Positions 1 through 14,594 of a stretch of DNA of 64,000 nucleotides are shown here, piece after piece. Position 1 is the stretch's first letter. Every line of letters starts with the position of its first letter. The notes beneath the pieces are model-generated. The model did no database searches. It had not been told where the DNA came from and saw nothing but the letters and a program-made list of their open reading frames with translations. The stretch is from Thermomicrobiales bacterium (GTDB lineage: Bacteria; Chloroflexota; Chloroflexia; Thermomicrobiales; UBA6265), in contig DASZAY010000009.1 in assembly GCA_035944555.1 (NCBI GenBank), positions 6,908-70,907 of the forward strand, given 5' to 3'. A program made the position numbers and the translations under genes.

Positions 1-985
1 TGCTGATGGTGACTTCGGTGTCGGCCCGGTCCAGCATCACCCAGACCCGGGTCGCCTCGGCGTGCTTGGCGACGTTGGTCAGCGCTTCCTGCGCCACCCG
101 GTAGATGACCAGTTTGACGTTCTGGGGGACCGCCGCCCGCGATCCCCGGTGCTCGAAGCGAACCGGGACGCCGAGCTGGTCGGCGAATCGCTGGCAGAGA
201 TCGGCCAGGGCGTCAGACAACCCAAGGTCGTCCAGGGCAGGCGGGCGAAGCTCCAATGCCAGCCGGCGGACGCTCTCCAGCGCCTGCACCGTCATCTCCT
301 CCAGTTCGCGGGTCACTTCGGCGGTCGGGACGGACGCCGACGCGCGAACCGTGCTGATCTTCAGCAACTGGGCGAACAGGAGCTGGGCCGTATCGTCGTG
401 CAGCTCCCGGGAGAGCCGGCGCCGCTCCTGCTCCTGCGCCTCGATCACCTGTGACGCCAGCGCCTCGATCTCGCGGCGGTCCCGGGCCAGCTCATCCAGG
501 GTGGCGTCAAAGGTTTCGGAGAGGTGGAGGATCTGCGGGTCGGTGAGGGGAGACGGGTTGGTCCGGGCCGACATATCGCCCATGCGCACGGCATTGGCGG
601 TGCGCTGGAGCGCCTCGATCGGGCGGAAGGCGGCGATCAGGACGAGGTAGTTGACCACGACGCTGAGGGGAAAGCCGATCACGAGAAAGGCGGCGATCAG
701 CGTCGACAGCGTCAGCGGCTCATGGTCGCTGGAGAAGTGGTACGTCACCGTCGTGCCGACGACGGCGCCGGTGACGACGATGGTCGCGTTGGCGATCAGG
801 ACCTTATAGAGAATCGGCAGCGTGTGGATCCACGACAGGCGCGGGTGGTGGGTCAGCCGGATCAGGGCGTTGGCCCAGCCCGGCGCCGGCTCGAACGTCG
901 CCGGGACCACCCGTGCCTGCCTGTCCGGTGCGGGATCGGGGGGCTCGGGGGACCGGTGGTTGCGGTGATCGGTAGCGGTACTCAC
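1..985 (-). CDS. sensor histidine kinase (TM + HAMP-like + HisKA_3 + HATPase_c, NarX/DesK type); C-terminus runs off the window start
   Basis: The ORF is open at the window edge, so it is absent from the ORF track. My reverse translation from GTG at 985-983 gives hydrophobic N-terminal segments. It also gives [15 protein letters not shown] (HisKA_3 H-box) and [21 protein letters not shown] (HATPase N-box). Confidence 0.8.
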
Positions 986-1131
986 GGGTTACCCCCGATG
1001 GTCGCTGGCGCCCTGCCCGCTCCGGGCCGGCGTCACCACGACTGACTGTACAATTCCCGCTTCGTTTCGCCGACCCTGCCGACGATGCCCGTCCGGCATC
1101 GCGGCCGGGGTCGATCTCAGGAGGCAGCCCA

Positions 1132-1623
1132 ATGGCTTCGACCTATTCGTTCGACATCGTCTCCAAGTACGACCAGCAGGAGCTCAAGAACGCCGTCGAT
1201 CAGGCACGTCGGGAGATCGAGACCCGGTACGACCTCAAGGACACCAAGACCGAGCTGGAGCTCAACGACAACGACATCCAGATCAACACCGAGAGCGAGA
1301 TGTCGTTGACGGCGATCCGGGACATCCTCGAGAGCAAGCTCGTCCGCCGGAACCTGTCGCTCAAGATCCTCGATTACCAGGATGAGGAGACCGCTTCCGG
1401 TGGGCGGGTGCGTCAGACGATCAGGCTCCGGGAGGGGATCCCCGACGACGTCGCCAAGTCGCTGACCAAGCAGATCCGGGAGCACAGCAAGAAGGTCACG
1501 CCGCAGATCCAGGGCGACGCGGTCCGGGTCCAGGCCAAGAGCAAGGACGAACTGCAGGACATCATCCAGATGCTCAAGGCTGAGGATCTGTCCGTCGCCC
1601 TCCAGTTCATCAACTTCCGCTAG
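1132..1623 (+). CDS. yajQ: YajQ/UPF0234 family nucleotide (c-di-GMP)-binding protein
   Basis: 163-aa ORF. The sequence [29 protein letters not shown]... resembles YajQ along its full length. GGAGG lies 7 nt upstream of the ATG. Confidence 0.9.
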
Positions 1624-1631
1624 CCCACCTC

Positions 1632-1665
1632 GTCGAAGCCCCGGAGCCGGCTCCGGGGCTTCGAC
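1632..1665. terminator. bidirectional hairpin between convergent yajQ and the acyltransferase gene
   Basis: GUCGAAGCCCCGGAGCC/GGCUCCGGGGCUUCGAC, a 34-nt perfect palindrome. Confidence 0.6.
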
Positions 1666-1666
1666 G

Positions 1667-2821
1667 TCAATGGCTGTCCGGCCAGACGCGCTGGAAGATC
1701 GACCACTGGTCGGGCTCGGCTCCGATCTCCCGCTCCAGAGCCGCGACCATCCGGCGCATACCCGCCTCGATATCGGCTGCGGCATCGCTCGTTCGCTCGA
1801 CCATGAACGGTTCCTGGGAACGAATTACGTGCCGGCGTCCCTCGCGCCGGGCGAAGACGGGCAGGATCGCCGCCCCGGTGTCCCGCGCGATCCGGACGGC
1901 ACCCGGCGGCAGGGTGGTCTCCGAGCCGAAGAACGACACGGGAAGGCCGTTCTGGAAGAAGTCGCGGTCGGTGACGATCCCGACCATCGCTCCGCGGCGC
2001 AGCGAGCGGTACAGCTCCCGGACGCCCGAAGGCGTTGGCTCGACGACGAGAGCGCCGTGCGACCCGCGCAGGTACGCGATCGCGTCGAACAGCACGCGAT
2101 AGGTCGTGCGTCCCGTCAGCGCGGTGCACGGGTAGCCGCGGTTGGTTAATCCGACGCCGATCATGTCGAAGGACCCGAGGTGGCCAGTCAGGACGATCAC
2201 GCCCTTCGTGTCTGATCGGAGCCGCTCCATGCGTTCGATCGTCTCGTCGTCGAAGGTGACATCCCGGGCAAGGTCGTCGGGCGACTGGTGTGGGGTCGTC
2301 AACAGATCGAGGATGTTGTGGATCCCGTTCCGGCTGATGCTCCGGGTCGTGCGCTCGACGAGGGCCGGGTCGGCGTCGGGTCCGAGGACGTGGCGGAGGT
2401 TGTCCTGGATGTTCTCCCGGAACCCGCTGTTCAGCCGGAACACCAGCGACCCGATCATCATCCCCAGCGCCAGGCGGACGCGATAGGGAAGCGCGGCCGC
2501 GAAGCGCGATACGATCCGGACCGTCAGGATGCTCAGTCGGTGGCGGATCGGGTCCCGCTTCTCCCGCCGGAACGCCAACTGAGTCCGGATTCGCGTCGCG
2601 CGTTCCTGGACATTGGCGACCCGGCGATGGGTGTTTTCCTGGACGTCGCTGGCCGTCTGCTGCACCCGATCGGCCTGGCGATGCACCCGTGTGCGCAGTT
2701 CATCGCGGATGATCTCGGGAACGGTCGTTATGGGCCCATCTGTCGGCTGGTCGCCGGTCTCTGGTGGCATGGTCTCCTGGCGGTCGGTCACGGTAGGACC
2801 TGGTTGCAACTGCTCCGTCAT
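1667..2821 (-). CDS. lysophospholipid/lipid A-type acyltransferase (LPLAT, HtrB/PatA-like) with an approximately 80-aa N-terminal extension
   Basis: 384-aa ORF with an HX4D motif (HLGSFD) and an LPLAT-like core (VIVLTGHLGSFD...GIVTDRD...PPGAVRIA). Its ATG overlaps the stop of the upstream CDP-alcohol transferase gene (ATGA coupling). Confidence 0.75.
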   Translation of the reverse strand: MTEQLQPGPTVTDRQETMPPETGDQPTDGPITTVPEIIRDELRTRVHRQADRVQQTASDVQENTHRRVANVQERATRIRTQLAFRREKRDPIRHRLSILTVRIVSRFAAALPYRVRLALGMMIGSLVFRLNSGFRENIQDNLRHVLGPDADPALVERTTRSISRNGIHNILDLLTTPHQSPDDLARDVTFDDETIERMERLRSDTKGVIVLTGHLGSFDMIGVGLTNRGYPCTALTGRTTYRVLFDAIAYLRGSHGALVVEPTPSGVRELYRSLRRGAMVGIVTDRDFFQNGLPVSFFGSETTLPPGAVRIARDTGAAILPVFARREGRRHVIRSQEPFMVERTSDAAADIEAGMRRMVAALEREIGAEPDQWSIFQRVWPDSH

Positions 2822-3525
2822 GTCCGATCGTCCGCAGCGGTCGACACCACACCGGGCTCGGCCGTCGGCGGCGAGGACAATGGCGCTGTCCTGCTTCCCC
2901 GGCTACTGGCGATGATCATGTCCCAGGCATCAAAGATGACCGGCAGACCCCGGATGATGGTCAGCGCGACCGACAGCCAGACCGTACCCCAGCCGATCAC
3001 CAGGTACGGGATGAAGTCGTGCAGGGTCTCGACCCAGGTCCCGGGCGCATCGGGCTGCTGGCTGCCCCAGTACCCGACGAGAAAGACGAAGCCGGCGGCC
3101 TTGGCATATCCGAACAGGGCGCGCATGAACCGGCCGGCGGTCAGCCAGCGCGTGAGGGGGGATCGCATCATGTTGTTCGTGCCGAACGCCGTCATCCCGT
3201 CGGCGTAGGACATCGAGCGCAGCCCATCGACGATGAAGCCGCGGGTCAGGACCAGCAGCGGGACCCAGAGCGGGATCGGCCCGAGGACGGCGAACGTTAC
3301 CCAGAGGACGTTCTCCACAATCCGGTCGCCGACGATATCCAGCACGGCGCCGAAGGCAGACGTGCTGTTCCGCTTGCGGGCCACCCAGCCGTCGACCCCG
3401 TCCGAGGCGAAGACGACGATGATCAGGATCATCGAGATCGCCGTGACGTTCGATCCGCCGAGGGTAAACAGGGCCACGACGGCGAACATCAGGATCAGCC
3501 GGGCAACGGTGATGAGATTCGCCAT
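2818..3525 (-). CDS. CDP-alcohol phosphatidyltransferase (PgsA / phosphatidylinositol-phosphate synthase-like)
   Basis: Contains the motif DGVDGWVARKRNSTSAFGAVLDIVGDRIVE, which fits DG(x2)AR(x8)G(x3)D(x3)D. It is a multi-TM protein. I chose the start at MANLITVARL (ATG 3525) rather than the longer ORF-track start at 3618. Confidence 0.8.
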   Translation of the reverse strand: MANLITVARLILMFAVVALFTLGGSNVTAISMILIIVVFASDGVDGWVARKRNSTSAFGAVLDIVGDRIVENVLWVTFAVLGPIPLWVPLLVLTRGFIVDGLRSMSYADGMTAFGTNNMMRSPLTRWLTAGRFMRALFGYAKAAGFVFLVGYWGSQQPDAPGTWVETLHDFIPYLVIGWGTVWLSVALTIIRGLPVIFDAWDMIIASSRGSRTAPLSSPPTAEPGVVSTAADDRT

Positions 3526-3665
3526 GCGCGACGACTTGCCCTCATTTGCGAACGCGTCCACCGGAGAAGCGTGCGCCTCTGTGAGTCGGGAGGACGGCTG
3601 TGCGCCTGAACACCACAACGGCGTGCGACGTGATGCGAATCACGTCGCGTCGGCGCCAGCTATTG

Positions 3666-4625
3666 CTACCAGAGCAGTGTAACGGCTGCCACCCACGCCA
3701 GGATCTGGACCCAGACACCCATACCAAGCACAAACCGGCCTGCGAATAGCTCGTGACTGGCGACGAGGAGCCCCGTGACCATGCTCATTACACCGAGCAG
3801 CGTCGCCACGACGGGGACTCTCCAGATCGTCGTCGCGTCTCCCATCTGACTCACCAGACCGTCGGCGTCCAGTCCGAGGGCGATCGGCGCCGAGATCGTG
3901 CCCGAGCGAACCCAGACAAGCACCCAGAGTGCCGCAAGCGACAGGACGATCAGCGCCGCCAGCTGCTGTGAGACCGGATCCTCCAGTGCGCCGGACGGAG
4001 CACGTCGCGCCCGGGGCCGGCCACTCCGGCCATCGCTCTGGCCCACTGCCCGGTGACGATCGGACCAGGAGGGCGCCGGGATGACGTCATCGTCGTCCTC
4101 GGCCGGGGCAGGACGTGGGCGAACCTCCGGGGCCTGCTCGGGCCAGGATGCCGGGCGTGAGCGGGTTCGCGGTTGAGGGCGGGGATCGTGTGCCGTGGCT
4201 CCATAGTCTACAGCTCGCCGGTCAGGTCCACCGAGGGGACGCGGGGTCCCTGGCAGTCGGTCATCGGGCAGCGAGTCGTCCCGACGGCGGCCCATCCACG
4301 CCGGGGCACCATCCGGAAGCTCGGCTGACGGAAGGCTGTTGACCGGCGCGGCATAGCGTCCGGTACCACGCCCCCGGCTTGCCGGAGGATCGGTCCAGGA
4401 CGGCTGGGAGGACGGAGGGCGGACATGGCTGCTGGAGCCGGCAACCGGGTCGCGGCGGGTTCGCAGCGGGGGCGCCTCATCGAACCGTCGGTCGTCCCCA
4501 CGGGATGTCCCCCGGTCGTCGGACCAGTTCCGTTCGGGGTTGGCGGGCCGGCCGCGGGACTGGTCGGACATGCCTCTCTCTCGGCGAGTGGGTGCTGGAT
4601 CGGTGGCGGGAACCGGTCCGGTCAT
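3666..4625 (-). CDS. hypothetical membrane protein (Pro/Arg-rich disordered N-terminal region plus C-terminal TM helices)
   Basis: 319-aa ORF. The C-terminal 100 aa form convincing hydrophobic helices (LAALIVLSLAALWVLVWV..., VVATLLGVMSMVTGLLVA, GMGVWVQILAWVAAVTLLW). The start is uncertain, with an alternative at ATG 4571. I recognised no family. Confidence 0.45.
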   Translation of the reverse strand: MTGPVPATDPAPTRRERGMSDQSRGRPANPERNWSDDRGTSRGDDRRFDEAPPLRTRRDPVAGSSSHVRPPSSQPSWTDPPASRGRGTGRYAAPVNSLPSAELPDGAPAWMGRRRDDSLPDDRLPGTPRPLGGPDRRAVDYGATAHDPRPQPRTRSRPASWPEQAPEVRPRPAPAEDDDDVIPAPSWSDRHRAVGQSDGRSGRPRARRAPSGALEDPVSQQLAALIVLSLAALWVLVWVRSGTISAPIALGLDADGLVSQMGDATTIWRVPVVATLLGVMSMVTGLLVASHELFAGRFVLGMGVWVQILAWVAAVTLLW

Positions 4626-4647
4626 GAGTCAGGAGTGGTCGCAGGAT

Positions 4648-4685
4648 AGCACGACGCCCGGCCGAAATCGGCCGGGCGTCGTGCT
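4648..4685 (-). terminator. hairpin terminator after the PPIase gene
   Basis: AGCACGACGCCCGGCC-N6-GGCCGGGCGUCGUGCU, a 16-bp perfect stem 18 nt after the stop at 4703. Confidence 0.6.
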
Positions 4686-4702
4686 CAGGAACCGGAGCGT
4701 CG

Positions 4703-6208
4703 TCAGGCGACGGGTGTAGCGACGGGCGTCCCGGGATCGGCCGTTGCCGGATCGGGCGTCCCACCGATCGTGACCGGGGTGCCGGCGTCGAACACGGGCG
4801 CACTGGCCGCCGCGCCGGTCGGGGCATTGACCGGCGGGGTGAACGCATCAGTGGCGGGCGTCGGCGTCGGATCGAGGTCACCGGACACGTTCGCCTCGGC
4901 TGCGCGGGCGTCCAGCCACTCCTGCACCGCCGCTTCCCGCACGGCGGTCAGCTGGTCTTCCGTGAATCCGCGGTCGGGGGACGATTCGAGGACCTGGACG
5001 ATTTCCCACCCGTATGGCGTCTGGAACGGCTGGGTGATCGTTCCGGGTTCGAGCCCGGACACGGCATCCCACATCGACGTCTCGACGTCGTAGCGGGAGA
5101 ACCAGCCGAGGTCGCCACCATTGGGAGCGGTCGCGGTATCGGCCGACAGTGTCCGTGCCAGCTCGGCGAAGTTGGCGCCGGCGCTCAGCTGGTCGTAGGT
5201 CTGCTGAGCAAGTTCCTGCGTCGAGAGCAGGATGTGCTGCGCATGGACCTGTGGACCGGACTGCCCGACCGAGTCATGGATCGATGCGGACACGCGCTCG
5301 CGGGCGAGGGCCGGCCGGGCGACCCACTGGATGTAATCAGACTCCTCGACGTTCGCCGCCTCGAATGCCCGCTCACGGTACTGCCGGAATCCGGTCTCGG
5401 CCTGATCGCGAGCGGACATCGCGTCTGGCGCCGGGGTTCCTTCAGCGGCCGGCGTGCCGGGGAGCGGGGTGCTGGCCGCATCCCCACCGGCAATCGGGGT
5501 AGCAGCGATCGGCGTACCGGCCCCGTCGACCGCCGGGGTCCCAGCCAGGGGATCTGGCGTGGTCGTCCCGGTCACCGCGGAGACGGCGGCCGTCTGGGTC
5601 GCCCACGAAGCGCGTTCCGGGATCAGCGTCGGCTCAGGAGTCGGCGTGATCAGCGGAGTTCCCTCCGGCGCGAACTGGTTGAGGACGAACGTGTCAACTT
5701 CCTCATCCGTGATATCGATGCCCTGCTCGGAGGCGTACTGGACGAACAGCTGATCCTCGACCAGGGTCTGCAGGAACTGCTGGTTGACGTCCGTGGAGCC
5801 CCAAAGGTCGTCCAGCTCGGCCTGGGCATTGGCGGCAGCGTTCTGATACTGGGAGGCCTGGTCGCCACTGACGACGCCAGCCAGGTAGGAGTACTGGTCC
5901 ACTTGGTTGACCAGGGAGATCCCGCGTGCCTGCCAGTAATCCTCACGCGTAATGTCGGTGCCATTGACACTCGCCAGCGTCTGGCGCGGACGGATGACAT
6001 CGGTCCAGATATAGGTACCGATCAGGATCACGGCGAGCAGACCGGCTACGGCGCCGAGACCGATGTAGAGCTGCTTCTGGCGCCTCGCCTCGCGTTCCGC
6101 GCGGGAGATACGCTTCGGCCGGTTGGGGGCGTTGCGGGACTTGGGCAGGCGCGCCTGCCGGATATCCGTTCGCTGCTGCCGACGGGGCCTTTGCTCTGCC
6201 ACGGTCAT
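4703..6208 (-). CDS. membrane-anchored parvulin-type peptidyl-prolyl cis-trans isomerase (PrsA/SurA-like)
   Basis: Rotamase core HAQHILLSTQELAQQTYDQL...GGDLGWFSRYDV...YGWEIVQV. One N-terminal TM helix and a Pro/Thr/Ala-rich linker. The start was set at MTVAEQ (ATG 6208), which is preceded by GAGGGA. Confidence 0.8.
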   Translation of the reverse strand: MTVAEQRPRRQQRTDIRQARLPKSRNAPNRPKRISRAEREARRQKQLYIGLGAVAGLLAVILIGTYIWTDVIRPRQTLASVNGTDITREDYWQARGISLVNQVDQYSYLAGVVSGDQASQYQNAAANAQAELDDLWGSTDVNQQFLQTLVEDQLFVQYASEQGIDITDEEVDTFVLNQFAPEGTPLITPTPEPTLIPERASWATQTAAVSAVTGTTTPDPLAGTPAVDGAGTPIAATPIAGGDAASTPLPGTPAAEGTPAPDAMSARDQAETGFRQYRERAFEAANVEESDYIQWVARPALARERVSASIHDSVGQSGPQVHAQHILLSTQELAQQTYDQLSAGANFAELARTLSADTATAPNGGDLGWFSRYDVETSMWDAVSGLEPGTITQPFQTPYGWEIVQVLESSPDRGFTEDQLTAVREAAVQEWLDARAAEANVSGDLDPTPTPATDAFTPPVNAPTGAAASAPVFDAGTPVTIGGTPDPATADPGTPVATPVA

Positions 6209-11011: not shown

Positions 11012-11610
11012 TGATGGTGATGACTCCGAACCGACGCGTATCCGGACTGATCGGCGCCCTGGCGTTGATCCTCGCCCTGACCGGACTGGTCGCCACGATG
11101 AGTGTCCGGGCCCAGGAGGCGACACCGGCCACTCAGTCCGGCTCCCTCGTGCCGGCCGCTCCACCCTGGCGCGCCGAACTGGTGCCGAGGAACCGGCCCC
11201 TTGTCGTTACCGTCGGCGACACCGAGGTACCGGTGGAGGTCGCCAACAACGACCGGGAGCGCTCGCTCGGGTTGGGCCAGCGTGATGGCTTGCTGCCGGG
11301 GACCGGCATGCTGTTCGTCTTCGACCAGGAGCCGGAGATCCGCAACTTCTGGATGGGCGGGATGCGGTTCTGCCTGGACATCGTCTGGGTCGACGGCGGC
11401 GAGATCATTGGCGCGGCGCAGAACACCTGTCCCGGGCCACCGGGTGAGGGACAGGACCTGATCCCGCGTCACCAGTCGCCGGGCGTCAGCGAGTACGTCC
11501 TGGAGGTCCCGGCCGGCTTCCTTGCCGAGAATGGCTACGGTGTCGGGACGCCGGTCACGTTCAGTGTCGACCCGTACAGCCTCCCCGTACCGGACGAGGA
11601 CGCGGGGTAG
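11008..11610 (+). CDS. DUF192 domain protein (secreted)
   Basis: Signal-like N-terminus, then RERSLGLGQRDGLLPGTGMLFVF...FWMGGMRFCLDIVWVD...YVLEVPAG, which is typical of DUF192. The start overlaps the otsB stop. Confidence 0.8.
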   Translation: MMMVMTPNRRVSGLIGALALILALTGLVATMSVRAQEATPATQSGSLVPAAPPWRAELVPRNRPLVVTVGDTEVPVEVANNDRERSLGLGQRDGLLPGTGMLFVFDQEPEIRNFWMGGMRFCLDIVWVDGGEIIGAAQNTCPGPPGEGQDLIPRHQSPGVSEYVLEVPAGFLAENGYGVGTPVTFSVDPYSLPVPDEDAG

Positions 11611-11657
11611 TCGCACGAGGCGACGGCGGGACACCTGATTTTGTCTCGTCGGCGCCC

Positions 11658-11686
11658 TTGACACCGGCCTGCACGATGACTACCAT
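11658..11686 (+). promoter_or_regulatory. sigma70-type promoter of the leuS leader (TTGACA-N17-TACCAT)
   Basis: Hexamers read directly from the sequence: TTGACA at 11658-11663 and TACCAT at 11681-11686. Confidence 0.6.
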
Positions 11687-11883
11687 TCGTTGCCGTGCTG
11701 ACTACACGGTCGCACAGCAAGATCTGCGGTGAGCGGGAGTAGTAGGCCGGCACCAAGCGAGTTGCCGGTCGGTGCGAGGCAACACACGCGCCGAACTCGC
11801 CCGTGAGCATCGTCCGATGAGGACGACGGGTCGCCTCCGATAGCAGGCGCTTGAGTGGTCTGGTGAGACGGACGCCCACATCT

Positions 11884-11959
11884 GGGGCTCTAGCTCAATC
11901 GGGAGAGCGCAACACTGGCAGTGTTGAGGTACGGGGTTCGAATCCCCGGAGCTCCACCA
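11884..11959 (+). tRNA. tRNA-Ala (anticodon GGC), CCA encoded
   Basis: Hand-folded cloverleaf. Acceptor stem GGGGCUC/GAGCUCC with G3:U70. D arm GCUC-AAUCGGGA-GAGC. Anticodon arm CAACA-CUGGCAG-UGUUG. T arm CGGGG-UUCGAAU-CCCCG. Discriminator A73 followed by CCA. Confidence 0.95.
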
Positions 11960-12005
11960 GTAGCGCCCGTCGCCAGTCAACCAGGGTGGTAACGCGGGAG
12001 CAGAC

Positions 12006-12049
12006 GCCTCTCGTCCCTGTCATGGGGACGAGGGGCGTTTTGTCGTTTT
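12006..12049 (+). terminator. intrinsic terminator of the leuS T-box leader
   Basis: 12-bp stem GCCUCUCGUCCC/GGGACGAGGGGC with a 7-nt loop, followed by GUUUUGUCGUUUU. Its 5' arm overlaps the 3' arm of the antiterminator. Confidence 0.85.
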
Positions 12050-12080
12050 CGAGCGCTTGACGAGAGAACAGGGGATCGGG

Positions 12081-14594
12081 ATGGCGGAGCAGGGAACGCG
12101 GACGGTCGAGCAGACGGATAGCCGCCGGGTCCAGGAGGGCTACGACGCGGCAGCGGTCGAGTCCCGCTGGAAGCGGCAGTGGCAGGTGGACGATCTGTAC
12201 CGGGTTGACGATGACGCGCCGGGCGACAAGTACTACGCGCTGACCATGTTCCCGTACCCCTCCGGCGTCCTCCACGTCGGGCACTGGTGGGCGTACACGA
12301 TCCCTGACGCCCACGCCCGCTACCGGCGGATGCGGGGTGACAACGTCCTGATGCCGATGGGCTACGACGCGTTCGGGCTGCCCGCCGAGAACGCCGCCAT
12401 TCGGAACAACATTCACCCCGCTGCCTGGACCGTCGACAACATCGAGGACATGTCCGAGCAGTACCGCTCGATGGGTCCAATGATCGACTGGACCCGGAAA
12501 GTCGTGACCTGCACGCCGGAGTTCTACCGCTGGAACCAGTGGCTGTTCCTGCGGATGCTGGAGCGCGGCCTCGCCTACCGCGCCCCGGGGACCGTCTGGT
12601 GGTGCCCGAAGGACCAGACGGTCCTCGCCAACGAGCAGGTCATCGACGGCGATGTCTGTGAGCGCTGCGGATCGAAGGTCTACAAGCGCGAGCTGGAGCA
12701 GTGGTACTTCCGGATCACGGAGTACGCCGACGCCCTGCTGGACGGCCTGGAGACGGTCGACTGGCCTGATCGCGTCAAGACGATGCAGCGCAACTGGATC
12801 GGCAAATCGCGTGGTGCCCGCCTCGGCTTCCGGCTGGATAGTGGCGAGTCGCTGGAGGTGTTCACGACCCGCCCGGACACCGTCTTTGGCGCGACCTTCA
12901 TGGTCATGGCGCCGGAGCACCCGCTCGTGTCCGCAATCACCACGGATCAGCAGCGTGTCGAGGTCGACGCCTACGTCGACCAGGCGCGCCGGCAGTCTGA
13001 AGTTGACCGGATGAAGCAGGACGCCGACAAGCCCAAGTCCGGCGTGTTCACCGGCGCCTACGCGACCAATCCGGTCAACGATGAGCGTATCCCGATCTGG
13101 ATCGCCGACTACGTCCTGATGAGCTACGGGACCGGCGCGATCATGGCCGTCCCGGCGCACGACGAGCGCGACTTCGCCTTTGCCCGGGCCCACGGCCTGA
13201 AGATCATCCCGGTCATCCAGCCGGAAGACGCCGAGCAACTGGACGGCGCGACGATGGAGGCGGCCTACGTCGGACCCGGTCTGATGATCAATTCCGGCCA
13301 GTTCGACGGCACGAGCGTCCCGGAGAGCATCGACACGATCGTCGACTGGCTGGCCGGGCAGGGCCGTGGTCAGGCCGAGATCAATTACCGCCTGCGAGAC
13401 TGGTTGATCTCCCGGCAGCGCTACTGGGGTACGCCGATCCCGGTCGTCTACTGCGACAGCTGCGGCATGGTCCCGCTGTCCGACGACCAGCTCCCCGTCG
13501 AGCTGCCGCTGGACGCCTCGTACACGCCGACGGGCCAGAGCCCGCTGGTGTCGAACGAGGCCTTCCTCCACACCACGTGCCCATCGTGTGGCGGTCCGGC
13601 CCGGCGCGAGACCGACACGATGGACACCTTCGTCGACTCGTCCTGGTACTGGTTCCGGTACACCTCGCCCCACTACGAGGAGGGGATGTTCGACCCGGCC
13701 AAGGTGCGTGAGTGGACCCCGGTCGACCTGTACACCGGTGGGATCGAGCACGCGATCCTGCACCTGCTCTACGCCCGGTTCATCACCCATGTCCTCAACG
13801 AGATGAGTCTGGTCGATCACACCGAGCCGTTCCGCCGCCTCCGCAACCAGGGGATCATCCTGGCCGAGGATGGCACCAAGATGTCCAAGAGCCGCGGCAA
13901 GCAGGTCAGCCCCGATCCGATCGTCGAGCAGTGGGGGGCAGACACGCTCCGGCTCCACCTGATGTACCTCGGCCCGTGGGAGCTAGGCGGCCCATGGAAC
14001 GACAACTCCATCGTCGGCATGAACCGGTTCATCCGCCGGGCCTTCCAGGTCGTGTCCGAGACGGCAGGCCGGCAGATTGACGCCGACGCGACGTCGCCGG
14101 CAGCCAGGGACCTGCGCCGGCTGACACACCAGACGATCCGGAAGGTGACGAGCGACATCGAGGGCTTCGCGACCAACACGATGGTCGCCGCGCTCATCGA
14201 GTTCACCAACGCACTGATGGCGCAGCGGGAGACGGAGGTCGTCCGCACCGGTGCGTGGCGCGAGGCCGTCGAGGCGCTCGTCCTGATGATGGCGCCGGCC
14301 ACCCCGTTTGTCGCCGAGGAGATGTGGGAGCGGCTGGGCCAGACATACTCCGTCCACCATCAGCCGTGGCCCGTCTTCGATTCGGCGCTGCTCGTCGTCG
14401 ACGAGGCCGAGCTGGTCGTCCAGGTCAACGGCAAGGTCCGCGACCGGATTACCGTCCCGGTCGGGCTGGAGCAGGATGCGGCCGTCGAGCAGGTCCTGGC
14501 GCTGCCGAAGGTGCGGGAGTTCGTCGGCGAGAAGACCCTGGCCAAGGTTATCTACGTCCCTGGTCGGCTGATCAATCTGGTCGTCAAGGGGTAG
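12081..14594 (+). CDS. leuS: leucine--tRNA ligase
   Basis: Long ORF with the class I signature MFPYPSGVLHVGH, the KMSKS motif and the CP1 editing domain. The start was set at ATG 12081, preceded by AGGGGA; the ORF track uses TTG 12057. Confidence 0.95.
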   Translation: MAEQGTRTVEQTDSRRVQEGYDAAAVESRWKRQWQVDDLYRVDDDAPGDKYYALTMFPYPSGVLHVGHWWAYTIPDAHARYRRMRGDNVLMPMGYDAFGLPAENAAIRNNIHPAAWTVDNIEDMSEQYRSMGPMIDWTRKVVTCTPEFYRWNQWLFLRMLERGLAYRAPGTVWWCPKDQTVLANEQVIDGDVCERCGSKVYKRELEQWYFRITEYADALLDGLETVDWPDRVKTMQRNWIGKSRGARLGFRLDSGESLEVFTTRPDTVFGATFMVMAPEHPLVSAITTDQQRVEVDAYVDQARRQSEVDRMKQDADKPKSGVFTGAYATNPVNDERIPIWIADYVLMSYGTGAIMAVPAHDERDFAFARAHGLKIIPVIQPEDAEQLDGATMEAAYVGPGLMINSGQFDGTSVPESIDTIVDWLAGQGRGQAEINYRLRDWLISRQRYWGTPIPVVYCDSCGMVPLSDDQLPVELPLDASYTPTGQSPLVSNEAFLHTTCPSCGGPARRETDTMDTFVDSSWYWFRYTSPHYEEGMFDPAKVREWTPVDLYTGGIEHAILHLLYARFITHVLNEMSLVDHTEPFRRLRNQGIILAEDGTKMSKSRGKQVSPDPIVEQWGADTLRLHLMYLGPWELGGPWNDNSIVGMNRFIRRAFQVVSETAGRQIDADATSPAARDLRRLTHQTIRKVTSDIEGFATNTMVAALIEFTNALMAQRETEVVRTGAWREAVEALVLMMAPATPFVAEEMWERLGQTYSVHHQPWPVFDSALLVVDEAELVVQVNGKVRDRITVPVGLEQDAAVEQVLALPKVREFVGEKTLAKVIYVPGRLINLVVKG

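Follow-up and report, generated by a model that had tools for sequence, protein, structure and literature searches.

A tRNA-Ala(GGC) gene nested in the Stem III loop of a leuS T-box leader from a Thermomicrobiales bacterium, and its recurrence in other bacteria

Canonical class I T-boxes (Rfam family RF00230), such as those of Bacillus subtilis tyrS, glyQS and leuS, are the textbook tRNA-reading RNAs. The leader that we analyzed here lies upstream of leuS, the gene for leucyl-tRNA synthetase (LeuRS), in a stretch of 64,000 nt from a Thermomicrobiales bacterium (contig DASZAY010000009.1, positions 6,908 to 70,907 of the forward strand). We refer to this whole stretch as the window and count positions from its first letter. 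The leader has all the modules of the canonical class I T-boxes, as well as a specifier that matches the downstream synthetase. Unlike them, it holds in the apical loop of its Stem III a 76-nt tRNA gene for another amino acid, tRNA-Ala(GGC). The sensor of one tRNA therefore also carries the gene for another, and carries it within the discriminator, the part of the T-box that senses aminoacylation.

Several known systems resemble this locus in part. In the Escherichia coli operon thrU-tyrU-glyT-thrT-tufB, tRNA genes share a promoter with a protein gene and are cut from the common transcript; the tRNA of the window, in contrast, is located inside a folded regulatory RNA and before a conditional terminator, a position that would uncouple tRNA output from mRNA output. 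In mitochondrial tRNA punctuation and in the MALAT1 mascRNA, an embedded cloverleaf attracts RNase P and RNase Z and determines where the flanking RNAs begin or end. Those cases are eukaryotic or organellar and lie outside riboswitches, whereas the cloverleaf of the window sits in one. Among T-boxes themselves, Stem III is variable in stem and loop, with insertions in some members (excerpt of PMC7583486), and the window leader is likewise comparable to T-boxes that have large insertions in or near the discriminator and keep the core motifs (excerpts of PMC7913692, PMC9177973 and PMC7583486). As those excerpts describe them, however, such insertions are plain hairpins with a role that is unknown or modulatory, while the insertion in the window is a gene in its own right, which has a product and processing enzymes of its own. 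Finally, the leader of B. subtilis thrS undergoes, in read-through transcripts, an endonucleolytic cut that leaves the terminator hairpin at the 5' end of the mRNA (excerpt of PMC7913692), and the same outcome is predicted for leuS here. The thrS leader is reportedly cut by general mRNA-decay nucleases, whereas the predicted cuts in the leuS leader are those of tRNA maturation. A full-text literature search did not turn up any T-box leader described as containing a tRNA gene, and an earlier mention in passing may exist; the novelty is apparently that of the composite, the T-box and the tRNA-Ala each belonging to a known family.

An earlier reading of this DNA, made from its letters alone (below, the sequence-only reading), had claimed that a complete leuS T-box with a Leu (CUC) specifier has an intact tRNA-Ala(GGC) gene nested in its Stem III loop. 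We searched positions 11550-12150 with the RF00230 covariance model, using an E-value threshold in place of the gathering score. The search returned a single match at 11720-12021 that covers model positions 1-219 of 219 (69.9 bits, E 4.1e-15), and thus links Stem I with the T-box/antiterminator region in one alignment. Its sole large insertion measures 107 nt, is located in the Stem III loop, and comprises the tRNA together with short flanks. The claim was borne out by this alignment, and also by six related genomes, by 17 of 20 metagenome loci and by the Syntrophomonadaceae, all described below. The positions that had been given for the tRNA, the CUC codon, the T-box sequence, the promoter and the terminator all hold. 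The elements of the locus, all on the + strand, are the following:

11658..11686, +: sigma70-like promoter, TTGACA-17 nt-TACCAT (10/12 matches)
11720..12021, +: complete T-box leader, interrupted by the tRNA (RF00230 alignment)
11726..11808, +: Stem I, with the GA/K-turn base GCGGUGAGCGGGAGUAGUA, the AG bulge AGCGAG, the distal loop GGUCGGUGCGA and the specifier loop GAA-CUC-G (covariance-model alignment)
11796..11798, +: specifier codon CUC (Leu), followed by a purine (sequence and covariance-model alignment)
11810..11839, +: Stem II (UCGUCC-GAUGA-GGACGA) and Stem IIA/B (CGG-GUCGCCU-CCG) (covariance-model alignment; the pseudoknot is predicted)
11853..11857, +: purine string GAGUG 5' of Stem III, the RRRxG part of the discriminator motif (sequence)
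11858..11875, +: 5' strand of Stem III, with the closing strand GUCUGGU at 11858-11864, a GA bulge, and the inner extension GACGGACGC at 11867-11875 (alignment and fold)
11876..11883, +: 5' leader of the tRNA, CCACAUCU, 8 nt, mostly unpaired (two bases are paired in the minimum-free-energy fold), with U at position -1
11884..11959, +: tRNA-Ala(GGC), 76 nt, with G3:U70, A73 and an encoded CCA (ARAGORN and the Rfam tRNA model)
11963..11978, +: 3' strand of Stem III, with the inner strand GCGCCCGUC at 11963-11971 and the closing strand GCCAGUC at 11972-11978 (alignment and fold)
11979..11980, +: AA after Stem III, part of the discriminator (sequence; invariant in 55 loci)
11983..11996, +: T-box sequence AGGGUGGUAACGCG, with the UGGU bulge (sequence and covariance-model alignment)
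11983..12018, +: antiterminator, helices A1 and A2 around the T-box bulge (covariance-model alignment)
12002..12050, +: intrinsic terminator, hairpin at 12002-12040 with a U-rich tail (terminator scan and sequence)
12081..14594, +: leuS, leucyl-tRNA synthetase, 837 aa (Pfam tRNA-synt_1, tRNA-synt_1_2 and Anticodon_1)

Stem I aligns to model positions 1-103 with all conserved motifs present, and its CUC specifier agrees with the amino acid of the downstream leuS. The UGGU bulge is complementary to an NCCA end and fits the A73 of tRNA-Leu; we propose uncharged tRNA-Leu(GAG) as the ligand of the leader. The 5' strand of the terminator overlaps the 3' strand of the antiterminator at 12002-12018, so that the two structures are mutually exclusive. 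The purine string and the AA that border Stem III correspond to the discriminator motif RRRxG-Stem III-AA as defined in the excerpt of PMC7583486. The minimum-free-energy fold of the whole 361-nt leader fails to reproduce the T-box architecture and was not used; the isolated module 11853-11982 folds as an extended Stem III topped by the cloverleaf. The tRNA, the only one that ARAGORN finds in the window, was recovered at 11884-11959 by the Rfam tRNA model (RF00005) with 62.7 bits (E 3e-13), where the gathering score is 29 bits. The encoded LeuRS is exactly the protein HEV2527582.1 from a Thermomicrobiales bacterium metagenome-assembled genome (MAG). Judged by its sequence, the leader is a member of the T-box family on all criteria except the Rfam gathering score.

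We surveyed the regions upstream of leuS for relatives of the window LeuRS in species-representative genomes, counting the first 43 loci. A tRNA-Ala(GGC) gene was located just upstream of leuS in 30 of them. The nested form was found in six related Chloroflexota genomes (L001-L004, L025 and L035), each of which gave one full-length T-box match (53-87 bits) with an insertion of 115-133 nt in Stem III. All six have CUC at the equivalent place. We also searched metagenome contigs with a pattern consisting of a T-loop, a gap of 32-62 nt and a T-box sequence, which is not specific to alanine and which under-samples nested forms with long trailers (e.g. that of L035). The pattern matched at least 120 loci. 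Among the matches listed, 69 coincided with a tRNA-Ala(GGC). Of these 69, 53 had leuS downstream, encoding proteins 47-78% identical to the window LeuRS, and in about 60 the 5' half of a T-box was found directly upstream of the tRNA. The 16 loci without a downstream leuS include short contigs, the locus L160, and the locus L154, in which the 1611 nt downstream had no leuS match. The nested arrangement is thus present in at least 60 metagenome contigs. When 20 metagenome loci were sampled for an Rfam search, 17 gave a single full-length T-box match spanning the tRNA (43-90 bits), and a strict pattern recognized CUC at the equivalent place in 50 or more of the 71 unique nested loci.

Within the matches listed, nesting is specific to tRNA-Ala(GGC) and leuS. 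Sixteen listed loci carried other tRNAs (Gln, His, Glu, Pro, Tyr, Lys, Ser, Leu, Met, Cys), and no T-box was found in any of the 13 that were scanned with Rfam; we rejected these loci as nested T-boxes, taking them as chance matches in tRNA arrays. L160 was likewise rejected as a chance match, its region 1-4900 holding over 25 densely packed tRNA genes and, after them, a tmRNA (97 bits). Two further loci, L123 and L148, had tRNA-Ala(GGC) and a T-box motif, and gave no RF00230 match at E ≤ 0.001. The first has leuS downstream and no match to the 5' half; the second has a weak 5'-half match (nhmmer), and no leuS was found downstream of it. These two may be degenerate or rearranged leaders.

The nested form is also found outside Chloroflexota. 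One nested metagenome locus (L082) encodes a LeuRS that matches a Syntrophomonadaceae protein at 100% identity, and we found the arrangement in Thermosyntropha lipolytica DSM 11003, in Syntrophomonas curvata and in the contig that encodes the S. zehnderi OL-4 LeuRS. The T-boxes of these three Syntrophomonadaceae were each recovered as a single match of 111-131 bits, above the gathering score of the family (93 bits). Exact LeuRS look-ups placed further nested loci in Dethiobacteria, Peptococcaceae, Candidatus Limnocylindria and Candidatus Aquicultor secundus, and the LeuRS of one nested locus groups with an incomplete sequence of a Pelotomaculum thermopropionicum MAG. An Actinomycetota MAG (L111) carries a T-box of 90.3 bits that spans the tRNA. 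In the Candidatus Aquicultor secundus locus (L205, 914-1150), the tRNA, the T-box sequence, the terminator and leuS are present and the T-box model scores 32 bits; only about 88 nt precede the tRNA, and a clear CUC specifier loop was not seen there. Its 5' domain may be reduced or divergent, which makes its status as a nested locus uncertain. By these assignments, the nested arrangement spans Chloroflexota, Bacillota and Actinomycetota, and it is widespread and ancient.

If Stem III closes around the tRNA, its two strands should covary across loci. We took as strands the first 8 nt downstream of AGNG-G and the last 8 nt ahead of the AA located before the T-box, in 55 distinct loci, with a few mis-anchored rows retained in the test; AGNGG was kept across all 55. 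Paired cells amounted to 80.2%, against 57.8 ± 1.6% after shuffling, and cells changed on both sides numbered 120 against 49 ± 6. The covariation score was 0.63, against 0.22 for shuffled strands, a value that none of 500 shuffles reached; when the registers were slid by 1-3 columns it fell to 0.07-0.19. Consistently, the flanks pair more strongly with their cognate partner (-18.3 kcal/mol) than with non-cognate ones (-10.8 kcal/mol), with a median z of -3.3. Covariation across the tRNA implies that both strands are on one RNA. That the flanks of the tRNA pair as Stem III had been part of the sequence-only reading, and the pairing of 11867-11875 with 11963-11971 stands; this helix, however, is only the inner extension of Stem III and not the whole of it, the closing helix 11858-11864/11972-11978 having been missed. 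The size of Stem III differs among lineages: it has only 7 bp in compact ones, while the flank helices elsewhere reach -38 kcal/mol and often extend well beyond an ordinary Stem III. The spacers between Stem III and the tRNA also vary, from 2 to about 40 nt in the leader and from about 8 to 70 nt in the trailer.

We consider it probable that the tRNA-Ala(GGC) gene, located at the tip of Stem III, is a passenger co-transcribed with an ordinary transcriptional Leu(CUC) T-box of leuS. One promoter upstream of Stem I would drive the tRNA, the leader and leuS. Stem I would be transcribed first and capture tRNA-Leu; Stem II and Stem IIA/B would follow, and then the 5' strand of Stem III. The nested tRNA, transcribed next, would fold into its cloverleaf, after which the 3' strand of Stem III would close the helix and restore the GAGUG-Stem III-AA geometry of the discriminator. 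The T-box bulge would come last, with the choice between antiterminator and terminator. Placed at the far end of Stem III, the tRNA need not disturb the sensing of the ligand. Because the tRNA precedes the conditional terminator, both terminated and read-through transcripts would be tRNA-Ala precursors; to free the tRNA, RNase P would cut at its 5' end, and RNase Z or exonucleases would act at its 3' end. Leader transcripts, instead of going to waste, could in this way provide a constitutive supply of tRNA-Ala, with leuS alone being regulated. Maturation of the tRNA would split the leader in two, which would be harmless if it took place after the co-transcriptional termination decision, and the read-through leuS mRNA would then begin just upstream of the T-box and the terminator hairpin. 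What the sequences show is the anatomy of the locus and its conservation, the covariation of Stem III, the purifying selection on the tRNA and the placement of the promoters; from these we infer the co-transcription, the order of folding, the processing and its timing, and any effect on mRNA stability.

Several points weigh against this reading. At the gathering score of RF00230, no T-box is found in the window (69.9 bits against 93). This is consistent with the penalty for a 107-nt insertion, and the nested homologues of Syntrophomonadaceae pass the gathering score. Second, the bulge of the window reads GGUGGUAACGCG in place of the usual GGUGGUACCGCG, with A11992 for C; at this position, where the metagenome pattern permitted A or C, 72 of 75 unique nested loci have C and one has A, so that sampling does not explain the difference. 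The replaced C belongs to an ACC trinucleotide that is said to stabilise the discriminator (excerpt of PMC7583486). The window copy may be weaker than those of its relatives, or A11992 may be an assembly error. Third, in some lineages with a leader of 2-3 nt, tight pairing of leader and trailer next to the acceptor stem might slow RNase P. Finally, the conservation of the arrangement could reflect lock-in instead of selected coupling, since removing either part would damage the other.

The plausible and most interesting rival makes processing integral to the switch. The nested tRNA would be selected as a site for RNase P and RNase Z, and the removal of Stem I-II would leave either a 5' hairpin that sets mRNA stability or a two-piece T-box held by the extended Stem III. 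Flank helices as long and stable as those reaching -38 kcal/mol could indeed clamp the halves once the tRNA is excised, and the nested arrangement has been kept in three phyla. There are also precedents: the read-through mRNA of B. subtilis thrS is stabilised when its T-box leader is cut just upstream of the terminator, and riboswitches cleaved by RNase P are known (both in the excerpt of PMC7913692). However, the compact lineages with a Stem III of only 7 bp speak against processing being required, and so do relatives that have the tRNA upstream of an intact T-box, or no tRNA, and presumably regulate leuS normally. On balance we regard this rival as unlikely.

Those relatives show several arrangements. 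In the tandem form, seen in other Chloroflexota (L005, L008, L010, L012, L015, L018 and L021), the T-box is an uninterrupted Leu(CUC) one and the tRNA ends 10-130 nt upstream of it; at L005 (the arrangement at 2173-2486), the T-box was confirmed by Rfam with 66.9 bits. A tRNA without a T-box lies directly before leuS in genomes among L022-L040, which belong to Limnocylindrales and relatives, and a T-box without the tRNA is found in L011 and L016. From the tandem form it follows that the tRNA is linked to the leader transcript and yet is not required inside the leader. Two tandem loci (L005 and L015) have a gap of just some 12 nt, a hint that the 5' end of the T-box RNA is generated there by 3' processing of the tRNA. 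In a Saccharibacteria MAG (L075), a tRNA-Ala(GGC) at 2885-2961 precedes leuS by 40 nt, without a T-box. The linkage of this tRNA to leuS appears to be older and wider than its association with the T-box.

Co-transcription of the tRNA with the T-box is supported by the distribution of promoters and terminators. A consensus scan of 11300-12400 found one promoter-like site, that at 11658-11686 (shuffled expectation 0.1), and one terminator, that at 12002-12040 with its U run (shuffled expectation 0.4); there is no terminator between the tRNA and the T-box. We scanned 66 unique nested loci for sigma70-like sites with 9-12 of 12 matches, up to 100 nt upstream of Stem I, and found one in 41. The stretch between Stem I and the tRNA is longer, and had a promoter-like site in a single locus of the 66 and none in the window. 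A T run follows within 90 nt past the T-box in 54 of 68 loci. These results support a single transcription unit of tRNA and leader, as judged from consensus sites, and lend indirect support to the earlier claim that every leader transcript would be a tRNA precursor. Alternatively, two units might overlap, the tRNA having its own promoter inside the leader and borrowing the T-box terminator, with transcripts of Stem I being separate or rare. Non-canonical promoters can escape consensus scans, and 25 of the 66 loci have no recognisable promoter upstream of Stem I. Six of these promoterless loci (L081, L098, L100, L118, L142 and L154), however, have a tRNA-Ala(CGC) gene immediately upstream of Stem I (e.g. 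L154, 461-536), which points to a longer tRNA-Ala operon with the T-box 5' domain as a spacer. Given also the near absence of promoter-like sites inside the leader, and a Stem III covariation that needs both strands on the same RNA, we consider overlapping units very improbable.

The nested gene itself appears to encode a working tRNA. Among 43 unique nested tRNA sequences, which are 60-99% identical, U33-GGC is invariant and the acceptor stem keeps 7 of 7 pairs; in the printed alignment rows, the stem sequences differ between loci and yet stay complementary. G3:U70 and A73 are present in the window and in 74 of 79 loci; the other five are consistent with a 1-nt offset of the ARAGORN start, directly seen in L086 only. 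AlaRS does not read the anticodon, so the invariant GGC argues for selection for decoding. U occupies position -1 in 51 of the 71 unique loci, whereas T makes up 17% of the nearby background; bacterial RNase P prefers U at this position, and the enrichment fits RNase P processing of the nested tRNA. By these patterns of conservation, the nested tRNA is under purifying selection and evolves as a functional one. CCA is encoded in 23 of 45 unique flank pairs.

This last count bears on a suggestion of the sequence-only reading, namely that the ACCA of the nested tRNA might mimic uncharged tRNA in cis. We discard it: CCA is encoded in about half of the flank pairs, the trailer ranges from about 8 to 70 nt, and the conserved Stem III would need to melt. 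More generally, that the nested element is a tRNA-like domain with a structural or regulatory role (a scaffold for Stem III, a cis decoy pairing ACCA with UGGU, or an elbow docked on the Stem I platform) has in its favour the complementarity of the window A73-CCA to UGGU and the general structural knowledge that any tRNA elbow could stack on the distal platform of Stem I, but we hold it to be most unlikely in view of the invariant U-GGC anticodon loop, the partial encoding of CCA, the U(-1) enrichment, the occurrence of the same tRNA outside a T-box or without one beside leuS in related lineages, and the variable lengths of leader and trailer, which leave the geometry to the T-box core unfixed and thus argue against a fixed tertiary contact of the nested tRNA with the core or the ligand.

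If the tRNA is indeed a co-transcribed passenger, constitutive and mostly terminated leader transcripts would be a source of a housekeeping tRNA, and more than a regulatory by-product. The riboswitch would fold and decide co-transcriptionally around an independent domain of 76 nt and would then be cut by tRNA-processing enzymes, which would provide a natural system to study the timing of folding, ligand capture and processing. Its occurrence in the cultured Thermosyntropha lipolytica DSM 11003 and in Syntrophomonas species makes the arrangement directly testable, and its presence in Chloroflexota, Bacillota and Actinomycetota offers a marker for early T-box history. Annotation pipelines that apply the gathering score miss such T-boxes in high-GC lineages.

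There is a small chance that maturation of the tRNA is an integral step of the switch, with a two-piece T-box clamped by Stem III and with the 5' end and lifetime of the leuS mRNA set by the cut, or else that it is a relic of how the switch originated. Were maturation integral, tRNA-processing capacity would feed into synthetase expression. A more speculative version is that a tRNA operon supplied the spacer and terminator in which this T-box was put together. It is motivated by the ancient linkage of tRNA-Ala(GGC) and leuS, which occurs with and without T-boxes in Chloroflexota and is found in Saccharibacteria as well, and by the T-box 5' domains located between two tRNA-Ala genes; if true, it would bear on how T-boxes arose.

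Other genes occasionally lie between the T-box and leuS. In six nested loci (L092, L133, L145, L151, L177 and L197), the intervening gene encodes a protein of about 185 aa that resembles GNAT acetyltransferases, sometimes followed by a methyltransferase-like open reading frame, and in L144 a 554-aa protein similar to AMP-binding enzymes precedes leuS. The tandem locus L005 has a 164-aa MgtC-like membrane protein at 2517-3011, between the T-box and leuS. All these proteins were assigned by eye. Next to the nested leuS T-box of L082, a c-di-GMP-I riboswitch (4403-4489, +, 84 bits) was found as a divergent neighbour.

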